In this document: positions 12,249 to 30,675 of the stretch, piece after piece
Layout of the letters: each line of letters begins with the position of its first letter
Numbering within the stretch: the first letter of the stretch is position 1
Assembly: GCA_017409875.1 (NCBI GenBank)
Contig: JAFQRW010000020.1
Span: forward strand, 22,265-86,264
Source of the DNA: Clostridia bacterium
Lineage (GTDB): Bacteria > Bacillota > Clostridia > RGIG6154
Length of the DNA: 64,000 bases
Direction of reading: 5' to 3'
Made by a program: the position numbers and the translations under genes
Notes under the pieces: generated by a model
Database searches by the model: none
Seen by the model: the letters and a program-made list of their open reading frames with translations, nothing else
Told to the model about the DNA's origin: nothing

Positions 12249-12261
12249 GTCAGGAGAGCAA

Positions 12262-12703: not shown

Positions 12704-12716
12704 AAAAGGAGAAAAA

Positions 12717-14654: not shown

Positions 14655-14683
14655 ACTTTTAAAAAGAAAGGAATTATACTATT

Positions 14684-15214: not shown

Positions 15215-15223
15215 GAGGAAAAT

Positions 15224-15508: not shown

Positions 15509-15536
15509 ACTTTACTATCAGTTAACAACCACCTAA

Positions 15537-15561
15537 AGCACTCCTTCTGGAGTGCTTTTTT
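15537..15561 (+). terminator. rho-independent terminator
   Basis: AGCACTCC-ttct-GGAGTGCT hairpin plus a T run. Confidence 0.75.
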
Positions 15562-15606
15562 ACAAAAGGAGTGCGGTGGAAAACGCTTAAAAAAGCTACG
15601 AAGCAC

Positions 15607-15684
15607 CGCAAAAAAATAATGGCAATGGATTAAGTCCATTGCCATTAACTATATAGCGTGTTTCGACGAAGCGGACAAATTTGC
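15607..15684 (+). repeat. REP-like intergenic element, copy A
   Basis: 76/78 identical to the reverse complement of 55286-55363. Contains the 9-bp-stem hairpin GGCAATGGA-ttaag-TCCATTGCC and the tail GAAGCGGACAAATTTGC. Confidence 0.85.
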
Positions 15685-15747
15685 TTTCCCGACAAAAAGC
15701 TGTAGCATTTTTGTCGAGAGGCGCGCTCTGCCGCCGATTATTTGCTT

Positions 15748-15830
15748 GATTCTTCAACAGCAACAGCGCAAGCTACAGTCATACCAACCATTGGGTTGTT
15801 GCCTGCGCCAATGAGGCCCATCATTTCTAC
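15748..15830. repeat. attL: 83-bp perfect direct repeat (orphan 3' tail of the GGGtGRT gene, reading frame 15738-15830)
   Basis: Identical to 30686-30768. The reverse strand reads VEMMGLIGAGNNPMVGMTVACAVAVEESSK*. Confidence 0.9.
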
Positions 15831-16155
15831 TAAAACTGTAATTTCCTCGCCAAAGCCCTGTTTGCTCCGACATTATCCACATCATCTGCGTGTCATTTGC
15901 CCCACATTATAGCGCAGTTTAGGCTCGTTGTCAATATGTTTTTATACTCCGATCTTCTTTGCTTTTAACGTATTTAAAATATATAACCTGTTTACTTTCA
16001 AAAACATTTCTGTTATAATGTAATTATGATATATGTTTTTGTTTGGAAAATAACAGTATAGTCTCATCTATGCTAACAAAACTAAACCAGAACTAGTTGA
16101 ATATAAAACCCGTGATAAAAATATAAAAATCACAAATGATCAAGGATGATTGATA

Positions 16156-17601
16156 ATGGAAAATCTGGAAAAACTAGTAAACAAATTAAGAGAATATGAC
16201 AACGAAGAGAATTGGTTTGAATTTAAGCATAATAATTATGATCCTGAAATAATCGGTCAGGACATAAGTGCTTTAGCAAACGGAGCTGCTTTTGCCGAAA
16301 AAGCTTGTGCTTATATGATTTGGGGTGTTGATGATAAAACTCATGAAATTGTCGGAACTGATTATGATCAATATTCACTTAAAGTAGGCAATCAGGAAAT
16401 CGAGAACTGGTTGCGTACCTTAATATCCAAAAATGCAGAATTTGAATTCAAAACAATTTATATGAATGATAAACGTGTAGTAGTGCTCATAATATATAAA
16501 GCAACCAATCAAACAGTAACATTTAAAAAGGTTGACTATATTAGAGTTGGGAGCTACACAAAAAAATTGAACGATTTTCCGCAAATGCAGGCACAACTGT
16601 GGGATAAGATCAGAAATAGCCGATTCGAAGAACAATATGCCAAGCAGGATTTATCCGCTTCGGAAGCTATACAACTACTGGATTTTTCTGTTTATTTCGA
16701 TCTCAAGAATGAACCAATTCCTGCTGAATTAGAGGGCATTATCCATTATTTAGTTCAGGAAGATATTTTAGCGAAACAAGATAATGGTATGTATGCTATT
16801 ACGAACATGGGTGCGATCTTATTTGCTAAAAGATTATCTGACTTCCCGAGACTCGAAAGAAAAGCTGTCAGAGTTGTACAATATAAAGACAACAGTAGAC
16901 TTGAATTGTTAAAAGAGGATGTAGGAAATAAAGGTTACGCTGTCGGATTTGACGGACTACTAAAATTCATTGAGGCATTATTACCTTCAGAAGAAGTAAT
17001 TGACGGAGCTATACGTTATAAAAAAACAACATACCCATCAATTGCATTAAGAGAAGCAATTGCAAATGCGCTGATTCATCAGGATTTTTCTGTTACTGGC
17101 ACAGGTGTGGTTGTTGAAATCTTCGGCAATAGAATAGAAATAACAAATCCTGGTACTCCGTTAGTTGATGTATACAGGATCATAGATAATCCACCAAAAT
17201 CGCGTAATGAAAAACTTGCTTCTCTAATGCGAAGATTAAAAATGTGCGAAGAACTTGGAACAGGTTGGGATAAAATTGTCATTTCCTGCGAACTCCAACA
17301 ATTGCCAACTCCACACATAAGAATTTACGAGGAAAATACAAAAGTAACTCTATTTTCTAAAGTAGACTTTTTCGACTTGTCTCCACACGATAAAATTTGG
17401 GCTTGTTATATGCACGCTTGCATTAAATATATACAAGGCGAATTTTTAACCAACAGTTCTTTAAGGGAACGATTTGGGGTGTCTGATGCTTCTTCTGCAA
17501 GTGTTTCTAGATTAATTAAAGACACTTGTGAAAAAGGATATATCAGAAAATTAGAAGACACTGCACCAAAGCACACAAAATATATTCCTGCATGGGCATA
17601 A
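16156..17601 (+). CDS. Schlafen/AlbA_2 domain plus HATPase_c_4-like ATP-binding putative DNA-binding protein
   Basis: N-terminal EENWFEFKHNNYD...ISALANGAAF...YMIWGVDD (AlbA_2) and C-terminal LREAIANALIHQDFS...IEITNPG. Confidence 0.65.
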   Translation: MENLEKLVNKLREYDNEENWFEFKHNNYDPEIIGQDISALANGAAFAEKACAYMIWGVDDKTHEIVGTDYDQYSLKVGNQEIENWLRTLISKNAEFEFKTIYMNDKRVVVLIIYKATNQTVTFKKVDYIRVGSYTKKLNDFPQMQAQLWDKIRNSRFEEQYAKQDLSASEAIQLLDFSVYFDLKNEPIPAELEGIIHYLVQEDILAKQDNGMYAITNMGAILFAKRLSDFPRLERKAVRVVQYKDNSRLELLKEDVGNKGYAVGFDGLLKFIEALLPSEEVIDGAIRYKKTTYPSIALREAIANALIHQDFSVTGTGVVVEIFGNRIEITNPGTPLVDVYRIIDNPPKSRNEKLASLMRRLKMCEELGTGWDKIVISCELQQLPTPHIRIYEENTKVTLFSKVDFFDLSPHDKIWACYMHACIKYIQGEFLTNSSLRERFGVSDASSASVSRLIKDTCEKGYIRKLEDTAPKHTKYIPAWA

Positions 17602-17626
17602 TTTAACTTGCTGGTAACTTGCAGAA
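17600..17626. repeat. 27-bp direct repeat, copy 1 (AATTTAACTTGCTGGTAACTTGCAGAA)
   Basis: Exact copy at 17696-17722. Each copy contains TAACTTGC twice. Confidence 0.85.
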
Positions 17627-17695
17627 GGAATAATAGCAAAGGAAATTAACGCAAAATAAAGGATCCCAAGTATCCAAAACACAATATATAGTATA

Positions 17696-17722
17696 AATTT
17701 AACTTGCTGGTAACTTGCAGAA
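17696..17722. repeat. 27-bp direct repeat, copy 2
   Basis: Exact copy of 17600-17626, 96 bp downstream. Confidence 0.85.
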
Positions 17723-17743
17723 CAATATATTTTCCAAAACAAA

Positions 17744-17771
17744 GAGCCTAGTTAATACCAGGCTCTTTTTT
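17744..17771. terminator. bidirectional terminator between convergent genes
   Basis: GAGCCT-n10-AGGCTC hairpin followed by a T run. Confidence 0.65.
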
Positions 17772-17786
17772 AATTATACTAACTCG

Positions 17787-19241
17787 TTAATTCATTGTGC
17801 CGATTTCGTCAAGTTTAACACAACTTGATAAAGGTCGTGCATTCCAAAAACAGCCGTTATACCCCATGCCTCTTTCTGACACGCATTTTTTTATAGAAGA
17901 TTTTAATTCATCTATAGAAGAAACCCCAAATAGCTCAAACATTTTTTCACACTGTTTGCGTGATTTTAATTTCTCCCATTCTTGTATATTTTCTTTTGTA
18001 TAAATATAGCATGTCGGGAACCAATAAGTATCAAAAGGTCGATATTCATCATTAATAGGAACATCCAGTGCATTAAAAATTTGATATAAAAACAAATCTG
18101 CTTGAGCAAGTGCTTCACTGGTATAAATGGGTAACTTTTCTCTTTCATTACACAATATATGTCCCATCAATGTATACTTGTTTTTATATTCGGTTGTTGG
18201 TTTATAGTGTTCTTCGATAATACGACTGTGGTGCCTGAATCTTGAATAATTCGTAGGTAATTTACTTTCATCTAAAGCATTAATTCTCAAAAAATAGGTA
18301 TTGGTTAGTATTTCATTAATTACCTTGTATTCCTTATAATGTCTCAGAAAGGCAATTACACATATAAATAGCTCCCAAATATGACATTTATATATCTCAA
18401 ATTCATATTCACCACATGAGGATACATTTTTCTCGTATGTTTTAGCATATATCAGTGTGTTAAACATATTTTCAAATATTTCAGAAATTACGCTTCCGAC
18501 ATCACACTCCGCACACAATAGAACTTCCAAAAAATCAAGAAAACAATCTCTCACACTTTTCATTCCAATGAATGTATCAAAAACAACTTTAGGATCAGTT
18601 GCATTTTTGTTATAATATTGTTTTAATATCTCGATATACTCTGACATAAACTTATGAATCAAAGCTTCTTGTTTTTTTGTTGAATTAGTGCCTTTTATCT
18701 GTTTTATCAAATCTTGAATAGGAAAAATATTTGCTTTGTCCTCTTCTAACCATTCTGGCTTTGTGCCGAGTTTTGGCTTTTTAACCAAAGGCTTTTCATA
18801 TATGTTCCTCAACAATTTTTCATATTCAGCTTCGTAATTACTATCATCTGACAAATCAATATAAATTCTTGTCTTTATATACGTTGGCACATAAGGGGTA
18901 CCATCTTCATCACACTCAGCGATTATGGGAATAAACTTTTCTTGGTTTACTTTACCATATATCTCCGTTGATATTATAGCCGTTTCATCACCAACTCCGC
19001 CTTCACGTCTGTTTGCTTTTTCTGCATACTTCTTATCACAAATAATTAAAACCTTATCAATATCAGGGTTGTTGACGCACTGCTCCATAAAAACATATTT
19101 ATCTTGTCCCTCTTTTAAGTCCCATTTATCTAAAACAACATCTACACCGTGAGAAACTAATCTTTGTGCTAATGGAACTACTAATGCATCGCTACTCCAT
19201 GAATATGACATAAAAATCTTCGGTATTTTATCTTCTTTCAT
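17787..19241 (-). CDS. TIR-domain protein with ~340-aa uncharacterised C-terminal domain
   Basis: KIFMSYSWSSD..VDVVLDKWDL..VLIICDKKY..GGVGDETAII..FIPII pattern of bacterial TIR/SEFIR-like domains. The rest has no recognisable motif. Confidence 0.7.
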   Translation of the reverse strand: MKEDKIPKIFMSYSWSSDALVVPLAQRLVSHGVDVVLDKWDLKEGQDKYVFMEQCVNNPDIDKVLIICDKKYAEKANRREGGVGDETAIISTEIYGKVNQEKFIPIIAECDEDGTPYVPTYIKTRIYIDLSDDSNYEAEYEKLLRNIYEKPLVKKPKLGTKPEWLEEDKANIFPIQDLIKQIKGTNSTKKQEALIHKFMSEYIEILKQYYNKNATDPKVVFDTFIGMKSVRDCFLDFLEVLLCAECDVGSVISEIFENMFNTLIYAKTYEKNVSSCGEYEFEIYKCHIWELFICVIAFLRHYKEYKVINEILTNTYFLRINALDESKLPTNYSRFRHHSRIIEEHYKPTTEYKNKYTLMGHILCNEREKLPIYTSEALAQADLFLYQIFNALDVPINDEYRPFDTYWFPTCYIYTKENIQEWEKLKSRKQCEKMFELFGVSSIDELKSSIKKCVSERGMGYNGCFWNARPLSSCVKLDEIGTMN

Positions 19242-19282
19242 TTACTTTCTCCTATTCTGTTCACAAAGCTTATATATAAATT

Positions 19283-19311
19283 ATTATACCATATTTCCTG
19301 TATTTTCACAA
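19283..19311 (-). promoter_or_regulatory. promoter of the TIR gene
   Basis: The reverse strand reads TTGTGA-17 nt-TATAAT with a TGg extension. An AGGAGA RBS follows before the ATG at 19241. Confidence 0.6.
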
Positions 19312-19537
19312 CACTAAGTATCAAACTTAAGAACAACCTTTGATGCAAAACAACTTCTCTGTTCACGAAATGTACCACGATGAAGCTCTACACAGGAAGG
19401 GCGCTTTTAGAAAAATGTAAATTAAATAAAAAAATTCAAGAGCCTTAGGTTTATGCCTTAGGCTCTTTTTATATATAAAAAATCAAATTCAAATAACAGG
19501 TTTAGACAATATAGTCTGAAGAAAGCGAGGTGAAACA

Positions 19538-19717
19538 ATGGATACAACAGAAGCAAACACATTAAAAGTCTGTCATCATTGCCTGATGGCAATTGAAAGC
19601 AGAGAGGGACACCAACCAGTATTACGCATTATTGATTTAAGTTTTGTTGATGAAGATGCAGAGTTTAAGTGTGATTGGTGTGGTGAAACTGAAATTGACA
19701 AATTATACGAAATTTAA
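19538..19717 (+). CDS. small zinc-finger-like protein (59 aa)
   Basis: Own translation MDTTEANTLKVCHHCLMAIESREGHQPVLRIIDLSFVDEDAEFKCDWCGETEIDKLYEI, with a GAGGTG RBS. Below the ORF-track cutoff. Confidence 0.5.
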   Translation: MDTTEANTLKVCHHCLMAIESREGHQPVLRIIDLSFVDEDAEFKCDWCGETEIDKLYEI

Positions 19718-19735
19718 AAGTAAGGAGAATAAAAA

Positions 19736-20569
19736 ATGAAAACAAACACTTATGAAAAAGTAACACAGAGGATTTTGGAAGAACTCCAAAAAGGTATAGT
19801 TCCCTGGCAGAAGCCATGGTTTTCAGAAAGGGCAATCAATTATGTAACCCGAAAACCATACAGAGGTATCAATGTATTATTGCTGGATAAACCTGGAGAA
19901 TATCTTACTTTCAAGCAATGTAAGGATGCAGGAGGACATGTTAAAAGAGGTGAAAAAGGTCAAATGATTGTATTCTTCAAGATGATAGAACATGAAGTAT
20001 TAAAAGATGATGGAACAAACGAAACAGAGCAATTCCCTTACCTTACATTCTCAACAGTATTTCACATCAGTCAATGCGAAGGAATTACAAGCAAACAGAA
20101 GCCGCTTCCTGAAAATGAAAATCAGACTATTTATGAAGCCGAAACCATTATCAAAAATTACATCGAAAGAGAACAGATTGACTACTATCAAGTTAAAGGT
20201 AGTGACAGGGCATATTACAGTCCGCTGACCGATTCAATCAATCTACCTGATCTGTCTCAATTCAAAGACAGTCCTGCATTTTATGGCACAGCATTTCACG
20301 AGCTTACACATAGCACAGGACATCAAAAAAGACTTAACAGACCAATCCTGAACTGCTTCTGTGATGAAAAATATTCACAGGAAGAATTAGTTGCAGAGAT
20401 TTCTTCTGCTATGTTGCTATCTTCCCTGAGTATTGAAGGTGTATTTCAAAATTCAGTAAGTTACATAGACAGTTGGTCAAAATTTCTACAAAACAACACA
20501 AAGGCAATTATTAGTGCAAGTAGTCAGGCTCAAAAAGCTGTAGATTATATTTTAAACAAAGGAGAATAA
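19736..20569 (+). CDS. ardC: ArdC-like antirestriction protein (ssDNA-binding N-domain plus zincin metalloprotease)
   Basis: VPWQKPW...KPYRGINVLLL...FKQCKDAGGHVKRGEKG and FHELTHSTGHQKRLNR. Confidence 0.8.
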   Translation: MKTNTYEKVTQRILEELQKGIVPWQKPWFSERAINYVTRKPYRGINVLLLDKPGEYLTFKQCKDAGGHVKRGEKGQMIVFFKMIEHEVLKDDGTNETEQFPYLTFSTVFHISQCEGITSKQKPLPENENQTIYEAETIIKNYIEREQIDYYQVKGSDRAYYSPLTDSINLPDLSQFKDSPAFYGTAFHELTHSTGHQKRLNRPILNCFCDEKYSQEELVAEISSAMLLSSLSIEGVFQNSVSYIDSWSKFLQNNTKAIISASSQAQKAVDYILNKGE

Positions 20570-20571
20570 TT

Positions 20572-21723
20572 ATGGAAAAATATTATACATACCCACTGGC
20601 AACAGAGGTTTTTACATGCACATCATTAAATTCAAACAAAGTATCTGAAGATATGATACATACTGCTGATACTTTAAAAAGAATCTTTCTGAATCAAGGC
20701 ATAAATTGTACTAACACCGATATCACAAATGGATTTACTAACACCATATACCGCTTCGAATTAAGAAGCTTTTCTGTAACACAAGCAAAGATAAAAAGAC
20801 TGGAGCCTTCACTTGACATGTACATAAGATCAAGCGGAGCTTTTATTTCCTTCCCTAAAGGCGAATCTGGCTTTGCGGTGAACGTTCCGAACTCAAACAG
20901 ACCTGATCTTCACTTAGGAACTTTGCTCAACACAGATCAATTTTTTGATTCTCACAATGGTAAAACTGGAAGGTTCAGCCTTCCTTTAGGTGTTGATGAA
21001 AACAACAATATTGTACTTGTTGATTTTAACAGTTTACCACATTTAATCATCGCTGGAAGCACAGGATCTGGAAAAAGCGTATGCCTTAATTCAATTATAA
21101 ATTCTTTGCTTTATCAGGCAATCCCAAACACTTTGCAGTTCCTTATGATTGATCCTAAAAAGGTAGAATTATCGCACTATGAGAAAGCAAAATATTCGCT
21201 GTATTCACCTGTTGTAACCGAGGAATATAATTCCTACACTGCACTTTCAAATATCATCAGAGAGTTAGATTTGCGTTATAAGATTATGCAGTCAGAAGCA
21301 TGTACAAACTTAGATGAATACAACTCTACACATGATACAATCTTTCCAAGAATAGTTGTTGTAATTGACGAGCTTGCAGACTTGTTTATGACATCTAAAA
21401 ACGAAATACAACCGCTTCTGATACGAATTGCACAATTAGGACGAGCTGCAGGAATCCATCTTATACTTGCAACACAATATCCTTCATGCAAGGTAGTAAC
21501 CTCTGAGCTTAAAGCAAACATTCCTGCAAGGATATGCTTTAGTCTTCCTAATGCAAGTAACAGCCGAACAATTATTTCACAGGCAGGAGCTGAAAAACTA
21601 AAAGGCAAAGGAGACGGACTTTTCTGCTCTGGAAAATCTGCTGACATAATCAGATTCCAGTGCCCTATTGTAACAAAAGAAGAAACAAGAAATTTACTAA
21701 AGTACATGGAGGAAAACTTATGA
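20572..21723 (+). CDS. FtsK/SpoIIIE-family DNA translocase (conjugative-element type)
   Basis: Walker A GSTGSGKS and Walker B VVVIDELADL, then GRAAGIHLILATQ. Confidence 0.8.
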   Translation: MEKYYTYPLATEVFTCTSLNSNKVSEDMIHTADTLKRIFLNQGINCTNTDITNGFTNTIYRFELRSFSVTQAKIKRLEPSLDMYIRSSGAFISFPKGESGFAVNVPNSNRPDLHLGTLLNTDQFFDSHNGKTGRFSLPLGVDENNNIVLVDFNSLPHLIIAGSTGSGKSVCLNSIINSLLYQAIPNTLQFLMIDPKKVELSHYEKAKYSLYSPVVTEEYNSYTALSNIIRELDLRYKIMQSEACTNLDEYNSTHDTIFPRIVVVIDELADLFMTSKNEIQPLLIRIAQLGRAAGIHLILATQYPSCKVVTSELKANIPARICFSLPNASNSRTIISQAGAEKLKGKGDGLFCSGKSADIIRFQCPIVTKEETRNLLKYMEENL

Positions 21724-22277
21724 AAATTGGATATATACGTGTTTCAACAGAAGCACAAAACACAGCAAGACAAGAAGTGCTTATGGAGCAATTAGGTGTA
21801 GAAAAACTTTTCATTGATAAATCGAGTGGTAAAAACACCGAGAGAAAACAACTTAATGAGCTTATGGAATTTATACGTGATGGCGATACGGTTATTGTAG
21901 AAAGCATTTCAAGATTTGCAAGAAACACAAGAGATCTGTTAAATCTTGTAGATAAACTCACACAAAAGAAAGTACATTTCATATCACAAAAAGAAAACAT
22001 AGATACCACTACACCCACAGGACAGTTCATGCTTACAATCTTTGCAGCAGTGGCAACACTAGAAAGAGAATCAATTTTACAAAGACAAGCAGAAGGAATT
22101 GCCATAGCAAAAGAGCAAGGTAAATACACTGGCAGAAAGAAAATTGAAAACCCTGAATTTCTGCAGATATATCAAAGATGGCAGAATAAAGAAATTACAG
22201 CTAAAAAAGCCATGCGCATTCTTTCTATGAAACCAAACACATTCTACCGCAGAGCTAAAGAGTTATCTGCAAAATAA
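21720..22277 (+). CDS. serine recombinase (resolvase/invertase family)
   Basis: MKIGYIRVSTEAQNTARQ catalytic motif, with a C-terminal HTH. ATGA overlap with the FtsK-like stop. Confidence 0.85.
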   Translation: MKIGYIRVSTEAQNTARQEVLMEQLGVEKLFIDKSSGKNTERKQLNELMEFIRDGDTVIVESISRFARNTRDLLNLVDKLTQKKVHFISQKENIDTTTPTGQFMLTIFAAVATLERESILQRQAEGIAIAKEQGKYTGRKKIENPEFLQIYQRWQNKEITAKKAMRILSMKPNTFYRRAKELSAK

Positions 22278-22403
22278 TCATATTTCACTGGAGTATACCC
22301 AAATGAAACAAAAAACAGGGAGCCTATTTTGTATCAATAGACTCCCTTTTACTTTTTGAAACATGTGTCAAATTAAATTAGGCTTTTTGAAACACTTGTG
22401 GCA

Positions 22404-22595
22404 TTATTTAAACTTTACATTAAACTCATCCTGCCATGTGCCTTTACCATAGTTAATTCTGATTTGACTTTCAAGTTTTTCAGCAGCATCCCAGCTAATT
22501 TCGTTATTAAATTTTGCCTTTTCAACCGCTTCAATTGACTTTTCCATTTCATTTTGTCTTTGCCAAGCCGCAAATCCTAACAAAAATGCATCCAT
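22404..22595 (-). CDS. hypothetical protein (63 aa), last gene of the helicase operon
   Basis: ORF 38 bp downstream of the previous gene. No motif recognised. Confidence 0.45.
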   Translation of the reverse strand: MDAFLLGFAAWQRQNEMEKSIEAVEKAKFNNEISWDAAEKLESQIRINYGKGTWQDEFNVKFK

Positions 22596-22633
22596 TTTGC
22601 TGTGCTCCTTAACTCTTTTTTAAGTATCCATGA

Positions 22634-23179
22634 TTAATCTGGTCTTCCTTGTGTAGTTCCTGCCAGGCTAAGTGCATTTAACAACCTATTGTATTCATCA
22701 TTTGATGTCACTTTCTTTTCATATATTGTGCCATCACTTAATCTGCTGATAGCCGCTGTAGCAAAATATCTACAATCAGGACATGTAAAAACTCTTTTCA
22801 TATATGCATTTCCTGCTGTTCCTGACATGTTCACCTTTATAGGATATTCTCTTCCAACAGGAAATACTGTTTTGTACATAGGTTTTCCGCAAAACGGACA
22901 TGCGTATGAACTGTCATAAAATACACGTGTAAGCATTGGATTTGGTCTGTTTTCATATGTTGAACCAACATGCCTATTTGTTTTCTGCCACATATTTTTT
23001 CCCTCCTTTATTCTTCTTTCTTCTTCAGCTTTTCTTCGCCTTTCTTCCGTTGCTCTTATTCTTTCTAATTCCGCTTTTCTTTCCTCTTCTTCAGCTTGTT
23101 TTTTAGCTCTATCATCAATTAACATAAATATAGGCATCACCATTAATATAATACAAGATATAATAGTTATCAACTCCAT
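22634..23179 (-). CDS. membrane-anchored coiled-coil / zinc-ribbon protein
   Basis: N-terminal TM helix, a charged EEERKAELERIRATEERRRKAEEERR segment, then CPFCGKPM...CPDCRYF. Confidence 0.55.
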   Translation of the reverse strand: MELITIISCIILMVMPIFMLIDDRAKKQAEEEERKAELERIRATEERRRKAEEERRIKEGKNMWQKTNRHVGSTYENRPNPMLTRVFYDSSYACPFCGKPMYKTVFPVGREYPIKVNMSGTAGNAYMKRVFTCPDCRYFATAAISRLSDGTIYEKKVTSNDEYNRLLNALSLAGTTQGRPD

Positions 23180-23204
23180 ATTAAAACCCTACTTTCTTAT
23201 TTCA

Positions 23205-23675
23205 TTACTCAATAGAAGCGAGAGCTTCTTTGGGTGATAATGTCCCTTCATCTACTGCTCTAATCACAGATTTGTACTTTTTTATGTTTTCACCCAAGGT
23301 ACGAAACATCATACCGAGCACACTCCAAGAAGTATCAGATAAAAGCATTTTTTGTCTAACATCTCCAACCATTCTGCAACATACAAGCTTTTGTTCATAA
23401 AACAATAAAAATTCAGGACTTGCCAGTCTATTATTTATCATCATTATTATTTCACTTACTTTTATTTCACTTCGTTTCTGCAAACTAAAAATAGGTACAA
23501 AGAGAGTAAAATCACTTTTTCCTACCTGTATACCCACTCTCATAGTTTCATCCGTATTTTCACTAATCTTGACATTGGGCACCATTATGATTCCCTTCTT
23601 TTCTATTGTTTCAAACTTATACCCCATTTTTTCAACTGACATTAATGCATAATTATAAATTTCTTTTGAATACAT
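23205..23675 (-). CDS. hypothetical protein, YbjN/T3SS-chaperone-like (tentative)
   Basis: 156 aa. Its layout is similar to the upstream 193-aa paralogue (..NNRLASPEFLLFYEQKLVCCRM..). Family assignment is from recall only. Confidence 0.4.
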   Translation of the reverse strand: MYSKEIYNYALMSVEKMGYKFETIEKKGIIMVPNVKISENTDETMRVGIQVGKSDFTLFVPIFSLQKRSEIKVSEIIMMINNRLASPEFLLFYEQKLVCCRMVGDVRQKMLLSDTSWSVLGMMFRTLGENIKKYKSVIRAVDEGTLSPKEALASIE

Positions 23676-23693
23676 AATAATCTCCTTGTTTTC

Positions 23694-24275
23694 CTAAAAA
23701 TTTCCGTTCAAGTCAACTTCTCCCATCTCAATAAGTTTACTCGTTATACTTAATTGTGCCTGATATGACGGTTCTGCTCCATTTTGCACGGACATAATAG
23801 CATGTCCAAATGACTCTAATTGATCATTAACTTTAAATATGGCTTCTTTAATCTCTTTTTCCGAAATCTCATCGCTAAATGTATAACTATGATGACGGCA
23901 AAATATCATTTTATGCTGATAATCCAAGAACAAACTTGGTGTAAATTGTTCATTTAACCTTAACAAAAGTTCACACATGTTAGCAATTCGATTATCTTGT
24001 ACAACAAAGTTATCGTATACACCCTTTATAATATAGCTCTCTTCATATGCCTTAATCATAATTCGTACATTCTTAATTTCTGAGTTAATTTGATTAAAAA
24101 ATGTTATTACACCATTATTTTCTTGATACGGAATGTTTAAATCTTTTAATACGTTCTTTACACTTTGATAGAAATTATTTTGTGGTTGCGGTTTTAATTC
24201 TTCTTTACGAGAAGAACTTGATCCTTTTAATAGATTTATAATTCTTTGACAAAAACTTTGCTCTTTCATTTTCAT
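23694..24275 (-). CDS. hypothetical protein, YbjN/T3SS-chaperone-like (tentative)
   Basis: 193 aa with ..LLRLNEQFTPSLFLDYQHKMIFCRHH... Confidence 0.4.
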   Translation of the reverse strand: MKMKEQSFCQRIINLLKGSSSSRKEELKPQPQNNFYQSVKNVLKDLNIPYQENNGVITFFNQINSEIKNVRIMIKAYEESYIIKGVYDNFVVQDNRIANMCELLLRLNEQFTPSLFLDYQHKMIFCRHHSYTFSDEISEKEIKEAIFKVNDQLESFGHAIMSVQNGAEPSYQAQLSITSKLIEMGEVDLNGNF

Positions 24276-24314
24276 ATCTCCTTCTTTAAATTCATGTTGT
24301 TATACACACTCCAA

Positions 24315-25067
24315 TCAATCATCTCGCGATTCTGCCCAGCTCTCATAATCCTCATAAGACGGGAATTCAGATGCATAACTGACAAAATTAGATTCAGCAG
24401 CTTTAGCATAATGCTCCATCTCCAATTTTTCCCAATCTTCTAAATCATTATCACTTTCATCAGGTTGTAAAATATTGCTTTCTTGCCCCAAATATGATAT
24501 TTTAGTAGTTGATGGTATAGCGCAAGCTCCAATCTCTGTACCATAAGGTACAGTAATCGATTTCAAAGATGAACACCCCTGAAAAGCAGAATGACCAATG
24601 TATGAAATGTTGTTTGGAACAACTACATTTGTTAAAGATGTACAATCTGTAAAAGTATACAATTCAATACCATTAATGTACTTTGGGAGAACAACTGATT
24701 TTAATGATGTACAATTCTGAAAAGCTGCGTTACCAACATATGTAACACTATCTGGAATGTTGATAGTCATCAATGCTCTGCAAGCTAAAAAAGCGTAATC
24801 CTCAATTCTTTCAACACCACTTGAAATGATAACACTTTTTAATTTCGCACAACCATAAAAAGCACCCTCGCCAATAGTTATAACATTGCCTGGAATTGTA
24901 ACTGTTGTCAAATTAGAAGACATTTTAAAAGCATCTTCTCCAATTTCAGTAATAAAATCAGGTAACGTCACACTTTGCTCATTACCTTTATATGATTTTA
25001 GCACAGTACCTTCAATCACAAACCCTTCTGAATTTCTTTGATTGTTTGCATAATTCTGCATTTTCAT
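24315..25067 (-). CDS. BspA-type leucine-rich-repeat protein, no signal peptide, acidic C-terminal tail
   Basis: Repeats of the type IPxxVTxIGxxAFxxCxxLKSV occur five or more times. The tail is DESDNDLEDWEKLEMEH...EDYESWAESRDD. Confidence 0.75.
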   Translation of the reverse strand: MKMQNYANNQRNSEGFVIEGTVLKSYKGNEQSVTLPDFITEIGEDAFKMSSNLTTVTIPGNVITIGEGAFYGCAKLKSVIISSGVERIEDYAFLACRALMTINIPDSVTYVGNAAFQNCTSLKSVVLPKYINGIELYTFTDCTSLTNVVVPNNISYIGHSAFQGCSSLKSITVPYGTEIGACAIPSTTKISYLGQESNILQPDESDNDLEDWEKLEMEHYAKAAESNFVSYASEFPSYEDYESWAESRDD

Positions 25068-25082
25068 CTCTCCAATTTATTT

Positions 25083-25403
25083 TTATATTTCCTTTATCAA
25101 CAGATTTATCCCATAATGAGAATCATATCCACTTCCGCCTGTTACCGCAGTTACCTCCGCGGTATAGTGTGTACCTCTGTACATCTTAGGCGACATAATA
25201 GCTGCTTTTTCTTTTGGGATAAACCCCAAAGTTGCACCGCTTGGATGCACTACTGCTACTGCATTTGAATCAAAAGGGTTATCAGGTCTTCTTTCTAATA
25301 TTAACTGCTGTCCTACATCAAGCTCGCCATCTTCATATAATTCTTCAACAAGTTCCTCTCTGCCTTCAAATGTTATACCTGCTACCTTTGTGTAGAATTC
25401 CAC
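25083..25403 (-). CDS. stand-alone HIRAN-domain protein
   Basis: KVAGITFEGREE...RRPDNPFDSNAVAVV...LGFIPKEKA matches the HIRAN signature. Confidence 0.7.
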   Translation of the reverse strand: MEFYTKVAGITFEGREELVEELYEDGELDVGQQLILERRPDNPFDSNAVAVVHPSGATLGFIPKEKAAIMSPKMYRGTHYTAEVTAVTGGSGYDSHYGINLLIKEI

Positions 25404-25416
25404 CTCTTATCCCTCC

Positions 25417-27312
25417 TCACATTTTTGAAAGTCCTTTTGATATTTCGGATATAAAACTCCTTTTGATTACTGAATTAGTTGGTGCTACATACAACGGATT
25501 ATCATAACTTGTAATGAATAGAAAATCTATTGCTCTTGTCATAGTAACGTAAAAAAGTCTTCGCTCCTGCTCCAAATCTGCTTTGTTATGTACAAAGAAA
25601 TCATTTGGGAATACGCCTACCTGAACACCTGGAATAAACACAACAGGGAACTCCAGTCCTTTAGCTTTATGGCAAGTCATAATATTGACTTTTCCATTGC
25701 TTAAGCTTGGTTCATCTTCGTTTTGCAATGTCAGTTGAAGAAAATCTATAAACTCCTGAATGTTTGCAGTAGCCTGAAAATCTTCTTCATACTTTTCAGC
25801 AATAGCAAGAATCTGTTCTACTTGTTCAATATGTTTATTTCGTTCTGTACTTTTTTTTGCATCTTCAAAAGTATAGTAATCAAGTAATTTTTTGATTATT
25901 TCAACTGACGATAAATCACTTTTTTCTTCGGATAATGATTTAAGCAATTCATATCTTGCTTTAAACAAATTTCTGTTCTTAAAATCAATATCAGATAAAT
26001 ACAACTTTCTGAAGACATCCGAATTGTTGCTACCTTTCCATCCATTTTCATCTACAAGTTTTTTATAGGCTATATTTCCAATAATTCTGTTCGGAAAATT
26101 GATGGCGGAATAAATGTTTTTAGAACTCCTAAAATTGTTTACAGTAAGTATAACTTTTATAAACTCAATAAAACCATTATCTCCCTGTGTGTACTCAATA
26201 TATGGGATTTTATTTTTTTCAAATATTTCTGTAATAGCTGCGACCTGCTTATTTGTCCTTACCAAAATAGCAATATCTCCAAAATCGTATGCATTCTCTT
26301 TGTTGAGTTTGATAATAGCATTTGTTATTGCCCTGGCTTCTTCCGCATCAGAAGGATAATTACCATATTTAATTTTGTCTTTCATTAATGCTTTGTCGCT
26401 GTTTTTCTTCTTAGATGTAACAGCTTTTATGATACGTTGAAAGTTATTTTTAATAAGCACATCCGAAAGCTCAACAATTTCCTTTTCCGATCTGAAATTA
26501 TCTTCAAGCCTTATAACTTCCACATCTTCACCTTTGACAAACTCACGCAGGAGGGAAGGGGATGATCCTCTCCACTCATATATGCATTGATCGTCATCAC
26601 CAACAACAAAGATTTCCGCTTCGTTGCCACAAATCAAATCAATAAACTCTTTTTGTAAAAAATTTATATCCTGATATTCATCAACTAATATGTATTTAAA
26701 TTTATCATGATACTGTTGTTGAATTAGCGGTCTTTCTTTTAAAAGCGGTACAGATCTCCATATAAAATCATCAAGATCAAACATACCTTTTCGTTCAAGT
26801 TCCTGGTTATATTTTTCAAAAACTTCACTAGTTTCCCGATCTGACACATCTAATCCATTTTTTATATAGCTAATCTTTTGTGCAAGCTCTACGATCCTGT
26901 TTTTCGGTATATTTTCATCATTCAAAATTTCACGAATTATATTGTTTTTTGTGCTTGGATCAGCAATTTCAAACTCAGATTCATAGTTGATTAATTCACA
27001 GTAGTTTCTAAGTAATTCTAAGCCAAGCTTGTGAAAGGTTTTAATTCCTACGAAATTGCATTCTGCACCAAGCCTGTCAAGTACTCTTTTTCTCATTTCG
27101 TTTGCTGCTTTATTTGTGAATGTTAATGCAAGTATCTGACTTGGATTAACTCCTTTTTCGGAAATGAGATAACATATTCTTTCTGTTAAAACTCTTGTTT
27201 TTCCTGAACCTGGTCCTGCAACTACTGCTGTTTTTTTGCTCTCGGTTACTACTGCTTTACATTGCTTTTCGGTAAGTAATCTCAAAGCATTATCCATTGA
27301 ACTGTTTTGCAT
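25417..27312 (-). CDS. UvrD/PcrA-type SF1 DNA helicase
   Basis: AGPGSGKT, LTFTNKAANEM, VDEYQD, GLEFPVVF and VTMTRA motifs. Start set at ATG 27312, because the track start (TTG 27375) lies inside the promoter -35. Confidence 0.85.
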   Translation of the reverse strand: MQNSSMDNALRLLTEKQCKAVVTESKKTAVVAGPGSGKTRVLTERICYLISEKGVNPSQILALTFTNKAANEMRKRVLDRLGAECNFVGIKTFHKLGLELLRNYCELINYESEFEIADPSTKNNIIREILNDENIPKNRIVELAQKISYIKNGLDVSDRETSEVFEKYNQELERKGMFDLDDFIWRSVPLLKERPLIQQQYHDKFKYILVDEYQDINFLQKEFIDLICGNEAEIFVVGDDDQCIYEWRGSSPSLLREFVKGEDVEVIRLEDNFRSEKEIVELSDVLIKNNFQRIIKAVTSKKKNSDKALMKDKIKYGNYPSDAEEARAITNAIIKLNKENAYDFGDIAILVRTNKQVAAITEIFEKNKIPYIEYTQGDNGFIEFIKVILTVNNFRSSKNIYSAINFPNRIIGNIAYKKLVDENGWKGSNNSDVFRKLYLSDIDFKNRNLFKARYELLKSLSEEKSDLSSVEIIKKLLDYYTFEDAKKSTERNKHIEQVEQILAIAEKYEEDFQATANIQEFIDFLQLTLQNEDEPSLSNGKVNIMTCHKAKGLEFPVVFIPGVQVGVFPNDFFVHNKADLEQERRLFYVTMTRAIDFLFITSYDNPLYVAPTNSVIKRSFISEISKGLSKM

Positions 27313-27346
27313 TTTAATACACCACTGATCTTTCTCTATGTACAAA

Positions 27347-27375
27347 ATAATAGCATATATTCCACTATTTGTCAA
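27347..27375 (-). promoter_or_regulatory. promoter of the helicase operon
   Basis: The reverse strand reads TTGACA-17 nt-TATTAT, about 35 nt upstream of the ATG at 27312. Confidence 0.6.
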
Positions 27376-27438
27376 CTAATTTCCACATAAAGTAATTGAT
27401 TTTGGTGTAAAATGTTTACATATAGTGGAGGCGATTGT

Positions 27439-27744
27439 ATGATTAAAGAATTTTCCGAAAACCTTAAAAATCTTCGCAACAAAAAAGGACTTACCCAAAC
27501 ACAGCTTGCAGAAAAGCTATGGCTGAATAAATCCATTATTTCAGCATACGAAAATCAACAACGTATGCCTTCGCTTGATGTTCTGATAAAATTGTCTTAT
27601 GAGTTTAACGTATCAATGGAATATCTGCTTGGAATAGGGAAGGGAAATACTATTGATATTACAGGTCTTAATGACGAACAGGTATCTTTGGTGGCTCAAC
27701 TAATTGCAGAATTTAAAAGAAGCAATACAACCAATAATTTTTAA
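27439..27744 (+). CDS. XRE-family HTH regulator, divergent from the helicase operon
   Basis: LKNLRNKKGLTQTQLAEKLWLNKSIISAYENQQRMPS, with a GGAGG RBS before ATG 27439. Confidence 0.8.
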   Translation: MIKEFSENLKNLRNKKGLTQTQLAEKLWLNKSIISAYENQQRMPSLDVLIKLSYEFNVSMEYLLGIGKGNTIDITGLNDEQVSLVAQLIAEFKRSNTTNNF

Positions 27745-27850
27745 AAATATCTCCGCCTTCCGAAGTATTGCTCACTTGATAGGATAGAAATATTGACATT
27801 CCATAAGTTTTTTCAAAAATTAAATACTAATACCACTTTTATAAAAAATA

Positions 27851-27908
27851 AGCCTGATTTTACAAGCACTTTTCAAAAATTATACTTTTAGTGCTTATAA
27901 ATCAGGCT
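27851..27908. other. long imperfect hairpin (~18 bp stem, 19-nt loop)
   Basis: AGCCTGATTT(t)ACAAGCACT ... AGTGCTTAT AAATCAGGCT, inside a 520-bp ORF-free region. Confidence 0.6.
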
Positions 27909-28265
27909 ATTTAATTTTCATTCAACTTTTTTTAAATCTGCCCCATATGTTTTTTCATTTAATCTGGGGAAGTTTTTCTATGTGCGGCTGATATATATAA
28001 TTTTATATTTGCGTTTCCTGCGAAAACGCTTTTTCTTTTCTTACTCCCGCAAACTTTTTGACAAAAGTTCTTGTGACTGAAAAAATCTTTCAAAGTGGCT
28101 TTATCAAGCCATTTAAAAGCATTTTTCCAGTTGAAAAACTCCTTTTGGTTATATAATATATAAATAATTATTTATATTATAACACGAAACAGACTTTTTT
28201 AATTTGAAAATCTTAAAATTTCTTTGATATCCCACTGTTTTTTTACTTTATTTAAGAACAACAAT

Positions 28266-29336
28266 TTACGCAACTTTAGTCATTATGAACTTGCCACTAA
28301 AGTCTAAAATATCTTCCGCAGTAATTGTATTCTTTAAAATTTCTTTGAAATTTGGAAGATCACTGACATTTTTGTATATTACATCTCCATCTTCATAGAC
28401 ACAGTATTCATCAAGCAAATCGAAACATTCTTGCTTTTGTTGAACACTCATATATGTTTCTGATTTTTCACCAAGAACATGTCTATTTTGTTTTGTTGGC
28501 AAGTCATGAATTTTTTGCTTTATACTCTCCCTAATTGTTTCAATATATAAAGTCATAATTTCTCTTTCGTAATTAACATTTTGCAACTTAACATAAGCGC
28601 TTGTTGCTAACATTTTTTTCGAAACAATTTTAATTTCTTTACCTCTTTCTTGACTAAAATATTCATCTCTTTTTGCATTGAATTCAGTAATCTTATGATT
28701 ATTTTTTCTTCTATACTTTGAGTATAACTCATATTCTTCAATGTTCATCTCTGATAAGGCTTTTTCCTTTGCACTATCTAACTCTTCGGCATCATACTCA
28801 TTATTACAATCATCTACATAGTATTCTTTATATTTTATTATGCGATCATTCTTCAATTTTTTTATCGCTGATCTAATCTTGGAGAATACAATCCTGTCAA
28901 TTGCACCTTCAACATATTCGAGACAGAATTCATTTCCTTCATATGTTTCTTCTAATGTTTCCCAATCCTGCATAAATTTTAAATGTTCGAATATTTTCTT
29001 GGTAAGCTTATACCTCGAATCAAAATCACATATATGATACAAAACCAATTCCTCAAAATTAGTTACGTAGTATTTCTTTCTTACATCTTTATCGGTAACA
29101 ATAATGTAATGATCTTTCATTATGTATTTTGTATCCTGTTTGATAATAGAAGTCTTTGAATTAATCCTGCTAGCAAAATACCAATTATCCCATTTCCTCA
29201 GGAAATAACATTTTTTAATTGCTGCTTTTTTACCATTCAAGTCCAGCGAATCCGACCCCAACTCATTTTTATAATTTAATTCTTTATAAAGTGCTGTTAT
29301 TGACCGAGCTTTCGTTGTACCTGTTTTCATAGGCAT
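28266..29336 (-). CDS. hypothetical protein (356 aa) downstream of the integrase
   Basis: Long ORF with a GGAGGA RBS. Lys/Glu/Tyr-rich, no motif recognised. Confidence 0.6.
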   Translation of the reverse strand: MPMKTGTTKARSITALYKELNYKNELGSDSLDLNGKKAAIKKCYFLRKWDNWYFASRINSKTSIIKQDTKYIMKDHYIIVTDKDVRKKYYVTNFEELVLYHICDFDSRYKLTKKIFEHLKFMQDWETLEETYEGNEFCLEYVEGAIDRIVFSKIRSAIKKLKNDRIIKYKEYYVDDCNNEYDAEELDSAKEKALSEMNIEEYELYSKYRRKNNHKITEFNAKRDEYFSQERGKEIKIVSKKMLATSAYVKLQNVNYEREIMTLYIETIRESIKQKIHDLPTKQNRHVLGEKSETYMSVQQKQECFDLLDEYCVYEDGDVIYKNVSDLPNFKEILKNTITAEDILDFSGKFIMTKVA

Positions 29337-29628
29337 TCCTCCTTTTTTAATTTATTTTTTGAATTGAATTGTTTTATCATTTTTATTTCCTCCATTATTT
29401 TTTAATATCTATATAAACATGCATTTCGCATGGAATTTTAAAAAAAGGTGCAAAAAACCCCAACGCATTATAGCATTGAGGTTTACATTTATATTTCTCA
29501 AGTATTTCTGCATCGTTTATAAACTATTTAATTTTCACCATAGGCAAGTTATCTCCTCAAAGATAGTTTACATAATAAATTATTTAACTACATATTACCA
29601 TAAAATTCCAGGTTTGTCAATAGGATAA

Positions 29629-30573
29629 CTATTTTGTTGAAAAATTTATTTGCTTTCTGCCCTGAAACTTATTTAAAAGGTTTATTTCTTCCACCTGTTT
29701 TGACAAATCACTGACCAATAAATTGATATAATTCTGTGTGATGCTTAAACTACTGTGTCCCAAAAGCCTGGAAAGATGAACAACATTACCTCCACTTAAT
29801 ACCCATTGCTTGGCAAACGTATGCCTGTATCTGTGAATTCCTGTTGTTTCCACACCTCGTTTCTTATTATATGTATAAAGCATATGATAGCAAGTGCTTT
29901 TTACAAGTTGTTGACCATATACATTACAAAAAAGATAATCCGCTAAGGTTTTATGCTGCCTGTATTTTAAATATTCTTTTAATATGCCTGCAAGTGTCTG
30001 ATTCATTGGCACAATAAGTGGTTTTCTGTTTTTAGTAACATTTACATACACAACATTATTGTCAAAATCCACATCTTTAATTTGTATATTTATAAGACTT
30101 CTCTGTCTCACTCCTGTGCAAAAAAGGAAATTTGTCATTACCCAACTCTGATATTCAATAAACTTACATTTTCTTATATCAGGCTTTTTCAAAAGTAATG
30201 TAAGTTCCGCTTCGGTGTAGGTTTCTACATTAGTTTTATCAACCTTTATTGCCTGCATCTTGAATGGCTGAATATAACCTTCATCCATCAGAAAATGAAG
30301 TGTAGTTATAAGATCTCTTAAGTAGGAATTTATGCTGACATCGTTATTCATCCTTTCTTTCAAATAGAGAACATAGTTATTATAAGCAGACTGTGTAATT
30401 TCAGTAACAGGCATTTCGTGATCAAAGTACTTGTAAAATTGAGTATAGCTCTGTTTGTAGTGATTGATAGTTCCTTCTCTTAAATTTCTCTGCCTGCAGT
30501 AGTCAAGATATTTGTTGCAGCCCTCCTCAAAAGTAATAGTGTGCTTGTTTAACATTTGCAGTTTTTTCATCAT
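29629..30573 (-). CDS. int: tyrosine-type site-specific integrase
   Basis: CTGVRQRSL (Arg I), HRYRHTFAKQW and LLGHSSLSITQNY (HxxR..Y). Start at ATG 30573 with a GGAGG RBS. Confidence 0.88.
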   Translation of the reverse strand: MMKKLQMLNKHTITFEEGCNKYLDYCRQRNLREGTINHYKQSYTQFYKYFDHEMPVTEITQSAYNNYVLYLKERMNNDVSINSYLRDLITTLHFLMDEGYIQPFKMQAIKVDKTNVETYTEAELTLLLKKPDIRKCKFIEYQSWVMTNFLFCTGVRQRSLINIQIKDVDFDNNVVYVNVTKNRKPLIVPMNQTLAGILKEYLKYRQHKTLADYLFCNVYGQQLVKSTCYHMLYTYNKKRGVETTGIHRYRHTFAKQWVLSGGNVVHLSRLLGHSSLSITQNYINLLVSDLSKQVEEINLLNKFQGRKQINFSTK

Positions 30574-30675
30574 AAAACCTCCATAAAAAATCAGACACAT
30601 CACAAGGGAAATCCCAAAATGATGTGTCTAACTTTTAATTTTCAGTTTTTAAAAATGATGCCTTTAAAAAAGCTC

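Follow-up and report, generated by a model that had tools for sequence, protein, structure and literature searches.

The open reading frame at positions 17787..19241 on the minus strand of the window (the whole 64,000-nt stretch of DNA that was analyzed) very probably encodes a member of the SEFIR (bSEFIR) family of single-protein anti-phage defense systems, carried as cargo of a ~15-kb integrative element in a low-GC, Clostridia-type gut bacterium. The gene comprises 484 codons and a stop codon, and all peptide strings quoted in the first-pass annotation, which had described a TIR-domain protein fused to a second domain, are present in its translation. SEFIR is a published single-protein defense system with a prototype from Bacillus sp. 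NIO-1130 (Millman et al. 2022), and a family member protected as a single gene once it was moved into B. subtilis (10.1101/2022.05.11.491447). The architecture of the present protein is that of this already published system and not a novel fusion; by analogy with the family, this particular protein would be expected to be active. PADLOC or DefenseFinder would label the gene SEFIR automatically, so that little is added by it as a defense gene, and the effector chemistry, the phage escape route and the phage counter-defense of SEFIR are already published. What is documented here is a large Clostridia/gut-microbiome SEFIR clade, with 1888 homologues and the exact protein on 8 metagenomic contigs.

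Family assignment and the N-terminal SEFIR domain

The assignment rests on the full-length sequence, C-terminal domain included. The PADLOC bSEFIR model matches residues 1-481 (E=2.6e-96), and PHROG 11745 (phrog_11745) aligns over residues 1-473 with positions 1-477 of 482 (E=6.7e-112). The best 120 of the 1888 homologues are all full length; full-length homologues sharing 35-89% identity are found in Clostridia, Bacilli (Bacillus, Fictibacillus), Treponema, Akkermansia, Bacteroidota and CPR bacteria, and identity to the retrieved Bacillus-group homologues is about 35-37%. The intact full-length ORF retains all family-invariant residues. With the SEFIR/bSEFIR system (Millman et al. 2022; PADLOC PDLC03957) the protein shares its layout over ~480 aa, in which a linker connects the N-terminal SEFIR domain to ~320 aa of helical C-terminal domain, as well as single-gene status without a conserved partner and homologues in defense islands, mobile elements and prophages; D38 and E86 are conserved among its relatives. 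It differs from the prototype in belonging to a Clostridia (Lachnospiraceae/Oscillospiraceae) clade and in residing on a 15-kb tyrosine-integrase element.

The N-terminal domain (residues 7-148; 18798..19223, minus strand) belongs to the SEFIR/TIR clan according to Pfam, PDB 5Y8E and Foldseek, and is the predicted NADase effector. Profile and structure searches bear out the TIR/SEFIR-like pattern first seen at the N-terminus, and the domain is more precisely a SEFIR than a generic TIR. By sequence, the SEFIR domain of Bacillus cereus (PDB 5Y8E) matches residues 7-157 with E=1.5e-32. A deep profile against PDB sequences recovers 5Y8E at 1e-55, the SEFIR domain of Act1 at 6e-5 and TIRs only at 1e-4 or weaker, the alignments with TIR NADases reaching only the first ~50 residues. 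Foldseek of the full-length model against the PDB likewise places 5Y8E first (2e-7) and the Act1 SEFIR (9OT1) next (1.3e-3), so that the bacterial SEFIR and the human Act1 SEFIR outrank all TIRs; TIR NADases are weak yet detectable relatives by both structure and sequence. The discovery paper admitted proteins in which the SEFIR match is stronger than the TIR match against PDB and Pfam (10.1101/2022.05.11.491447). In the PDB comparison, made here with HMMER and Foldseek where the paper used HHsearch, SEFIR is the stronger match. In Pfam the two are near-equal and slightly reversed by hmmscan (again HHsearch in the paper), with TIR_2 at 63.0 bits (4.7e-17, residues 9-144) and SEFIR at 57.1 bits (3.2e-15, residues 7-124); the TIR_2 profile matches nearly all TIR-clan domains (PMC13142454), and across 67 diverse family members SEFIR was detected in 66 and TIR_2 in all 67. 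Both Pfam (residues 7-124) and 5Y8E (residues 7-157) place the SEFIR domain at the N-terminus.

The closest structures, 5Y8E/5Y8F from Bacillus cereus F65185 (Yang et al. 2018), are 44% identical to the present protein over about 150 residues and share with its N-terminal domain the motifs FISYSW, LD+W, GGVGxET and QEKFIP; they cover the isolated domain only, whereas the C-terminal domain lies outside any structure. The domain has two putative key residues, D38 in the LDKW motif (codon 19130-19128, minus strand) and E86 in the GGVGDET motif (codon 18986-18984, minus strand). Across 81 deep representatives, whose identity to the query ranges over 26-48%, D38 is conserved in 98%, G82 in 100% and E86 in 95%, and the GGVGxE motif that includes E86 is conserved at 95-100%. 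D38 aligns with the Asp of LDRW in 5Y8E and is presumably the equivalent of D40 in the prototype, where the D40A mutant lost defense, an effect read as loss of SEFIR-SEFIR interaction (10.1101/2022.05.11.491447). E86 is predicted to be catalytic; residues 83-99 around it have a pLDDT below 50 in the AlphaFold2 model, which is therefore a poor guide to the geometry of a putative active site there. The same fold is found in the animal SEFIRs of IL-17 receptors and Act1/TRAF3IP2 (PDB 9OT1), which differ in being signaling adaptors, located in receptors or adaptor proteins and not fused to the C-terminal domain found here. We know of no report of NADase activity for animal SEFIRs.

The C-terminal helical domain and the proposed mechanism

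A linker (residues 149-168; 18738..18797, minus strand) joins the two domains. It is predicted to be flexible, residues 150-168 having a pLDDT below 50 in the AlphaFold2 model, and carries conserved Pro, Gly and Lys residues, of which P151, K155, P156, G159 and P162 are each conserved in at least 85% of the 81 deep representatives. The C-terminal domain that follows (residues 169-484, ~320 aa; 17790..18737, minus strand) is the predicted phage sensor. The remaining ~340 aa had been described as helical-looking and rich in Cys and aromatic residues, which agrees with our results: AlphaFold2 models residues 150-484 as helical (pLDDT 90.2, pTM 0.89), the protein contains 15 Cys, and Phe, Trp and Tyr together account for 46 of the 335 residues of the C-terminal part. 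[quoted passage not shown] With the C-terminal model alone, Foldseek returned no credible relative from the PDB (best E=0.076, TM about 0.2, to helical-repeat proteins such as MO25) and none from BFVD (best E=0.24); with the full-length model, its PDB matches were SEFIRs and TIRs only, none of them for the C-terminal part. Two profile searches of PDB sequences gave no match on this part, a literature search for a full-length bacterial SEFIR structure found none, and the search of the protein against NCBIfam gave no meaningful match. No Pfam family recurs on the C-terminal part among 67 members; DUF5766, a single weak match (E=0.067), was rejected as it did not recur among them.

Two motif-based readings were considered for the protein. 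As had been noted at first reading, it has no P-loop and is not a STAND/NLR: a Walker A motif of the [AG]x4GK[ST] type is absent and Pfam reports no NTPase family, which removes an Avs-like protein from consideration. A minimal HEPN-like R-x4-H pattern (SRIIEEHY), already discounted when it was first pointed out, is not conserved: of the 81 deep relatives, 27% have R340 and 4% have H345, and even close relatives do not agree on a majority residue at position 345; the HEPN idea was therefore dropped.

Used alone as a query, the C-terminal domain retrieves 454 representatives, nearly all of which are ~480 aa long and carry it at ~150-480. In a few relatives the same domain is kept and the N-terminus is replaced by a TIR_2-only or a protein-kinase domain. 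A constant C-terminal domain with swapped N-terminal heads is what one would expect if a sensor is combined with interchangeable effectors, and the C-terminal domain is thus probably the sensor. The domain also contains a conserved polar set, R231, E257, E290, R367, D382 and W407, in the 81 deep representatives. Catalysis would account for these residues just as well as sensing, and one may ask whether the effector function resides in the C-terminal helical domain, which would then be an enzyme or toxin, with the SEFIR domain serving only for oligomerization or as an adaptor, as in animal IL-17 signaling. Such an arrangement would fit the strong conservation of the polar set across 26-48% identity, the missing fold relative, the reading of the prototype D40A phenotype as lost interaction, and the proposal of Yang et al. 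2018, in the form in which it is quoted by the discovery paper (10.1101/2022.05.11.491447), that bacterial SEFIRs are general interaction modules. We nevertheless consider it unlikely: later literature assigns NAD+ depletion in the tested SEFIR members to the N-terminal SEFIR domain, SEFIR defense is overcome by the phage NARP1 pathway, in which ADPR and nicotinamide are turned back into NAD+, conservation of the GGVGxE motif, E86 included, reaches 95-100%, and the occurrence of the same C-terminal domain behind TIR_2 and protein-kinase heads fits a sensor better.

An N-terminal effector governed by a C-terminal sensor is also the way in which the literature describes the SEFIR family, in line with the initial suggestion of a single-polypeptide TIR sensor-effector. 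[quoted passage not shown] Phages escape SEFIR through mutations in the capsid protein, and the capsid protein co-expressed alone does not activate SEFIR (10.1101/2022.08.27.505566); in S. thermophilus, an active SEFIR system shows narrow specificity (PMC12322248). We propose that the protein would be produced constitutively from its own promoter and held inactive until late infection, when the C-terminal helical domain may sense a phage cue tied to the capsid protein or its assembly. Sensing would lead to SEFIR-SEFIR self-association of the N-terminal domains through an interface including D38, and self-association would build an NAD+ glycohydrolase site in which E86 of GGVGDET takes part. 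Conversion of NAD+ to ADP-ribose and nicotinamide would then deplete the cell of NAD+, halting phage replication and arresting or killing the cell (abortive infection).

A more specific proposal, to which we give somewhat less than an even chance, is that the C-terminal ~320 aa constitute a structurally orphan, modular phage-sensing module common to SEFIR, plain TIR and kinase heads, in which the polar cluster and the Pro/Gly-rich linker may bind a cue linked to capsid assembly, and that the Clostridia clade may recognize gut-phage triggers unlike those of the Bacillus prototype. If true, the orphan module would represent a new sensor domain family, not a new defense system.

Gene organization and homologue neighborhoods

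The SEFIR gene carries its own expression signals. A sigma-70-type promoter with an extended -10 element (19283..19311, minus strand), proposed at the outset, was confirmed as TTGTGA-17-TG-n-TATAAT, with the -35 hexamer TTGTGA at 19311-19306, a 17-nt spacer, the TG at 19291-19290 and the -10 hexamer TATAAT at 19288-19283. It is the best-scoring promoter-like site of the region in a consensus scan (10/12, TG present); such sites are not more frequent than in shuffled sequences (10 observed, 12.2 expected), so the promoter is plausible and not statistically proven. A ribosome-binding site, AGGAG, is read from the sequence at 19249..19253 (minus strand), 7 nt 5' of the ATG. The gene had also been credited with its own terminator, and folding reveals one 3' of the stop codon (17736..17768, minus strand), a 12-bp stem at 17741-17768 followed by UUUGUUUU as the U-run, with a dG of -18 kcal/mol, z=-4.77 and none of 200 shuffles equally stable; a consensus scan for terminators did not call it. 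A second hairpin with a U-run is located 5' of the promoter (19428..19467, minus strand; hairpin 19438-19467, dG -16.1 kcal/mol, z=-3.31 by folding) and likely insulates the gene against read-through. With terminators on both sides, the gene is monocistronic. An Rfam search around it yielded one sub-threshold chance match and nothing else.

Across 78 homologue loci we looked for a conserved partner gene, and no neighbor family is present in more than 6. The protein appears to work as a single gene, as judged from a genomic proxy only, namely the 78 loci together with the gene's own promoter and flanking terminators. The domain shares with Thoeris (ThsB TIR plus ThsA) a TIR-clan domain employed in anti-phage defense, whereas Thoeris is a two-gene signaling system; a Thoeris or other two-gene system was rejected here, no ThsA-like match being present among the window neighbors and no partner being conserved in the 78 homologue loci, and the earlier remark that a SIR2/SLOG ThsA-type partner is lacking nearby is borne out. 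It might still be argued that the SEFIR domain acts like ThsB of Thoeris as a generator of an ADP-ribose-derived messenger for an effector encoded elsewhere in the genome, as the domain is in the STIR clan and scores as TIR_2 and many bacterial TIRs produce signals according to the TIR-signaling literature. This is very unlikely, given that no partner is conserved beside the gene in the 78 loci, that no ThsA, SLOG or SIR2 effector is found among the window neighbors, that a family member functioned as a single gene in B. subtilis and that the SEFIR family is reported to deplete NAD+ directly.

The homologue loci further reveal an association with defense islands, qualitative in nature and drawn from neighbor counts in the 78 loci. 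BrxC and PglX flank a SEFIR homologue in 4 loci, and an AbiLi-like ATPase, a type I REase and a type II (C5) methyltransferase are neighbors in 4 loci each. Serine recombinases and a relaxase-like protein are further recurrent neighbors, and prophage copies of homologues exist, e.g. in Clostridium phage D-1873. The survey of homologue neighborhoods called for at first reading thus places the homologues within islands of BREX and restriction-modification genes, on mobile elements and in prophages.

The integrative element

The first-pass annotation had placed the gene on an integrative element next to defense-like cargo, and the boundaries of this element can be drawn precisely. Two 93-nt direct repeats, 97% identical and spaced 14,938 nt apart, delimit it: the left, att-like copy (15738..15830; repeat family D1) duplicates the 3' end of the target gene, and the right copy (30676..30768) is the 3' end of a GGGtGRT-family gene (30676..31674, minus strand; Pfam GGGtGRT 2.3e-195). 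A tyrosine integrase (29629..30603, minus strand; Pfam Phage_integrase 4.6e-30) adjoins the right repeat. The ~14.9-kb body between the repeats (15831..30675), delineated by Pfam/PADLOC annotation, GC content and the repeats, has a GC content of 0.28-0.35, against 0.37-0.40 in the flanks. Besides the SEFIR gene, Pfam and PADLOC identify as its cargo an SLFN AlbA_2/HATPase_c_4 protein (16150-17601), an ArdC-like protein (19736-20569), an FtsK/SpoIIIE ATPase (20572-21723), a small serine resolvase (21660-22277), a BspA-type LRR protein (24315-25067), a HIRAN protein (25083-25403), a UvrD/GajB-like helicase (25417-27375) and an HTH regulator (27412-27744). Gabija was considered for the UvrD/GajB-like helicase and is not supported, as no GajA model match was obtained among the ten element proteins scanned. 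A megablast of 14600-27400 against the PLSDB plasmids gave no match.

As the immediate neighbors of the gene in the window are mostly mobility genes, it could be a non-defense gene, or a decayed and inactive copy riding passively on the mobile element. We regard this as extremely improbable: the reading frame is uninterrupted over its full length and keeps its family-invariant residues, a plausible promoter, a ribosome-binding site and terminators accompany it, homologues occur inside BREX and restriction-modification islands, and 8 independent metagenomic contigs carry the same element with an identical SEFIR protein. The locus presents the SEFIR gene as mobile cargo, on a 15-kb integrative element whose ends are precisely defined.

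Assignment to the SEFIR family

The intact ORF at 17787..19241 (-) encodes a protein of 484 aa that contains every peptide string quoted in the first-pass annotation, and the TIR/SEFIR-like N-terminus described there is borne out by Pfam matches to TIR_2 (4.7e-17, residues 9-144) and SEFIR (3.2e-15, residues 7-124). The decisive result for its predicted identity is the match to the PADLOC bSEFIR model, with E=2.6e-96 over the whole protein (residues 1-481); the runner-up PADLOC models are at least twenty orders of magnitude weaker and span only the TIR-like head. The PHROGs family phrog_11745 is also collinear over the full length (1-473 against 1-477 of 482, E=6.7e-112). The finding is real, and the protein belongs to an already described defence family, SEFIR, which standard defence-finder tools would label automatically. 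By analogy with that family, the earlier guess of a single-polypeptide TIR sensor-effector appears to be right.

The closest solved relative of the head is a Bacillus cereus SEFIR domain known from crystal structures (5Y8E/5Y8F; 44% identity, E=1.5e-32), whose score is raised by family profiles to 8e-43 and then to 1e-55. The human Act1 SEFIR domain comes second by family profile (6e-5), whereas TIR NADases such as PdTIR, BtTir and AbTir are more distant, scoring 1e-4 to 2e-3 with only about 50 residues aligned. Foldseek ranks the hits to the AlphaFold2 model in this order too, with bacterial SEFIR ahead of Act1 SEFIR (in its complex with IL-17RA/RB) and TIR domains last. On these rankings the head belongs to the TIR clan as a domain of SEFIR type.

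In an alignment of 81 representatives (26-48% identity to the query), the conserved head residues include D38 (98%), G82 (100%), G84 (96%) and E86 of the GGVGxE motif (95%). The Asp of the SEFIR-SEFIR interface is D40 in the prototype (10.1101/2022.05.11.491447), and by its position D38 may be the counterpart. The position of E86 would fit the TIR-type catalytic Glu, in a segment (residues 83-99) that is poorly modelled. The absence of a P-loop holds, as a sequence scan of the protein found no Walker A motif. The R-x4-H string, which had been judged no evidence of HEPN by itself, is poorly conserved in the same 81 representatives (R340 27%, H345 4%), and HEPN is ruled out on that account.

The C-terminal domain and its linker

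In the AlphaFold2 model, residues 150-168 form a low-confidence linker and residues ~169-484 a compact, mainly helical domain with one small beta-hairpin, which agrees with the helical character read from the sequence at first. Modelled alone, the C-terminal part reaches a pLDDT of 90.2 and a pTM of 0.89. The Foldseek check proposed for it returned no significant relative: the best PDB matches were generic helical-repeat proteins (E=0.076, TM about 0.2), and BFVD gave nothing better than E=0.24. Two profile searches of PDB sequences gave no match to this part, and no Pfam family recurs on it among 67 diverse members. The C-terminal part is all the same a real, conserved domain. Searched exhaustively with HMMER, residues 150-484 retrieved 454 cluster representatives, nearly all of them proteins of ~470-490 aa with the domain at ~150-480 and the same architecture as the SEFIR protein. 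Its residues R231, E257, E290, Y316, R367, D382, W407 and P409 are each at least 85% conserved in the 81 representatives.

A few relatives keep the domain (residues 170-484 here) under a different head: TIR_2 only in P0149 and P0155, a protein kinase in the 576-aa P0164, and a ~240-aa region without family assignment in P0163. Sensor modules are typically recognised by such a pattern, in which the tail stays constant and the enzymatic heads change. Since the constant tail is joined to kinase, TIR_2-only and unassigned heads, the C-terminal domain is suggested to be a modular sensor with swappable effectors, the sensor role being our inference; alongside these exchanged heads, the opposite division of labour, with the C-terminal domain as the effector and SEFIR as a scaffold, seems unlikely. 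The linker (residues 149-168; 18738-18797, -) is predicted to be disordered, with pLDDT below 50, and P151, K155, P156, G159 and P162 are nevertheless conserved at least 85% in the 81 representatives; the linker may act in docking or autoinhibition. Our literature search found no description of a full-length SEFIR structure or of the C-terminal domain, and the residual interest of this protein lies in that structurally orphan, modular putative sensor and its conserved linker.

Relatives, their neighbourhoods and a proposed mechanism

Scanning one genome for each species yielded 191 relatives. The best 80 are full length, with 35-89% identity, and are spread over Clostridia, Bacilli, Treponema, Akkermansia, Bacteroidota and CPR. 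The proposed survey of homologue neighbourhoods covered all ORFs within 4 kb at 78 loci. Recurrent neighbours are serine recombinases (6 loci), BrxC and PglX (4 loci), an AbiLi-like ATPase, a type I restriction enzyme, a C5 methyltransferase and a relaxase-like protein. The four loci with brxC and pglX belong to Lachnospiraceae/Oscillospiraceae genomes; in three (L014, L018 and L024) the SEFIR homologue lies between the two genes, inside the BREX locus, and in L026 both are upstream of it. The 89%-identical homologue has an entirely different neighbourhood. Prophages carry the gene too, and the copy in Clostridium phage D-1873 is annotated "SEFIR domain protein". This distribution matches the pattern of defence islands and mobile elements reported for the family, and beside it an inactive passenger gene is an unlikely reading. 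Each neighbour family is confined to 6 or fewer of the 78 loci, so that the gene appears to have no obligatory partner; Thoeris-like signalling to an unlinked effector is likewise improbable.

SEFIR was published as a single-protein defence system (Millman et al. 2022), and later work assigns its depletion of NAD+ to the N-terminal domain. Phages escape SEFIR through capsid-protein mutations, while the capsid protein alone triggers no SEFIR toxicity (Stokar-Avihail et al., 10.1101/2022.08.27.505566). The phage NARP1 pathway cancels the defence (10.1101/2024.02.11.579819), and in Streptococcus thermophilus a SEFIR system is active with narrow specificity (PMC12322248). Onto the observed architecture, membership, conservation and context we would map activities taken from these and other published relatives. 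The protein would be made constitutively and held autoinhibited; its C-terminal domain would sense a late cue linked to capsid assembly, upon which the SEFIR heads would self-associate via the interface at D38, creating an NADase site that relies on E86, and depletion of NAD+ would abort the infection. The roles of these residues, like the sensor assignment, are inferred.

The gene and its integrative element

The promoter claimed for the gene (TTGTGA, 17-nt spacer, TGgTATAAT; 19311-19283, -) ranks first among promoter-like sites in a local scan (10/12, TG extension present); shuffles of this AT-rich stretch contain at least as many such sites, so the promoter is plausible, statistically not established. 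A ribosome-binding site, AGGAG, lies 7 nt upstream of the ATG (-). The claimed terminator was not called by a consensus scan downstream of the gene; when the 52 nt past the stop codon are folded, they form a 12-bp hairpin (17741-17768, -; dG -18 kcal/mol, z=-4.8) with UUUGUUUU after it, and 0/200 shuffles are as stable. Immediately upstream of the promoter is a second hairpin with a U-run (19438-19467, -; dG -16.1, z=-3.3). Of the flanking genes, one (16150-17601, +) converges on the gene and the other (19538 onward, +) diverges from it; with the promoter, ribosome-binding site and bracketing hairpins, this makes the gene a self-contained monocistronic unit. The stem ends, AAAAAGAGCCT...AGGCTCTT, are the same in both hairpins, which gives the gene the look of a cassette set between similar terminators; this could be coincidence. 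A perfect 27-nt direct repeat, AATTTAACTTGCTGGTAACTTGCAGAA (family D3), occurs at 17600-17626 and 17696-17722, 96 nt apart, in the space separating the SEFIR gene from its convergent neighbour.

The integrative element with defence-like cargo noted in the first-pass annotation now has boundaries. Direct repeats of 93 nt, 97% identical, lie at 15738-15830 and 30676-30768; the right one makes up the 3' end of a gene of the GGGtGRT family (30676-31674, -; Pfam 2.3e-195), whose last 93 nt were duplicated with 3 mismatches near the stop codon. A tyrosine integrase identified by Pfam (29629-30603, -) lies 73 nt from the right repeat, and the 14.9 kb that the repeats enclose has a lower GC (0.28-0.35) than the flanks (0.37-0.40). 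The region is an integrative element inserted in the 3' end of the GGGtGRT gene, and is probably mobilisable. The identical protein and element occur on 8 metagenomic contigs, and PLSDB plasmids include no near match to the element.

Besides the SEFIR gene, the cargo comprises an AlbA_2/HATPase_c_4 (Schlafen-like) protein of 483 aa (16150-17601, +), an ArdC-like protein, an FtsK/SpoIIIE ATPase, a small serine resolvase, a BspA-type LRR protein, an HTH regulator and a UvrD/GajB-like helicase with a HIRAN protein directly downstream (25083-27375, -). The AlbA_2/HATPase_c_4 protein, with weak PADLOC matches to PDC-S50 and to PNTD regions of Argonaute-associated proteins, is predicted to be another defence-like cargo product. 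The UvrD-type helicase is strong on GajB models (3e-87), the 106-aa HIRAN-domain protein matches the PADLOC candidate PDC-M03B, and GajA models found no match among the ten element proteins scanned; together they may form an additional two-gene defence candidate carried by this element.

A pair at 14684-15508 (+), made up of a barnase-like ribonuclease (176 aa) and a barstar inhibitor (94 aa), lies between HydF and the element, immediately beyond the left repeat. Between MurT/GatD and HydF, a small phage-like regulatory cluster (11715-13124) comprises an HTH_3 repressor-like gene, a Zn-ribbon/HNH-like ORF and a phrog_36 transcriptional-regulator-like ORF. GC is reduced here too, and the cluster may be what is left of another mobile element.
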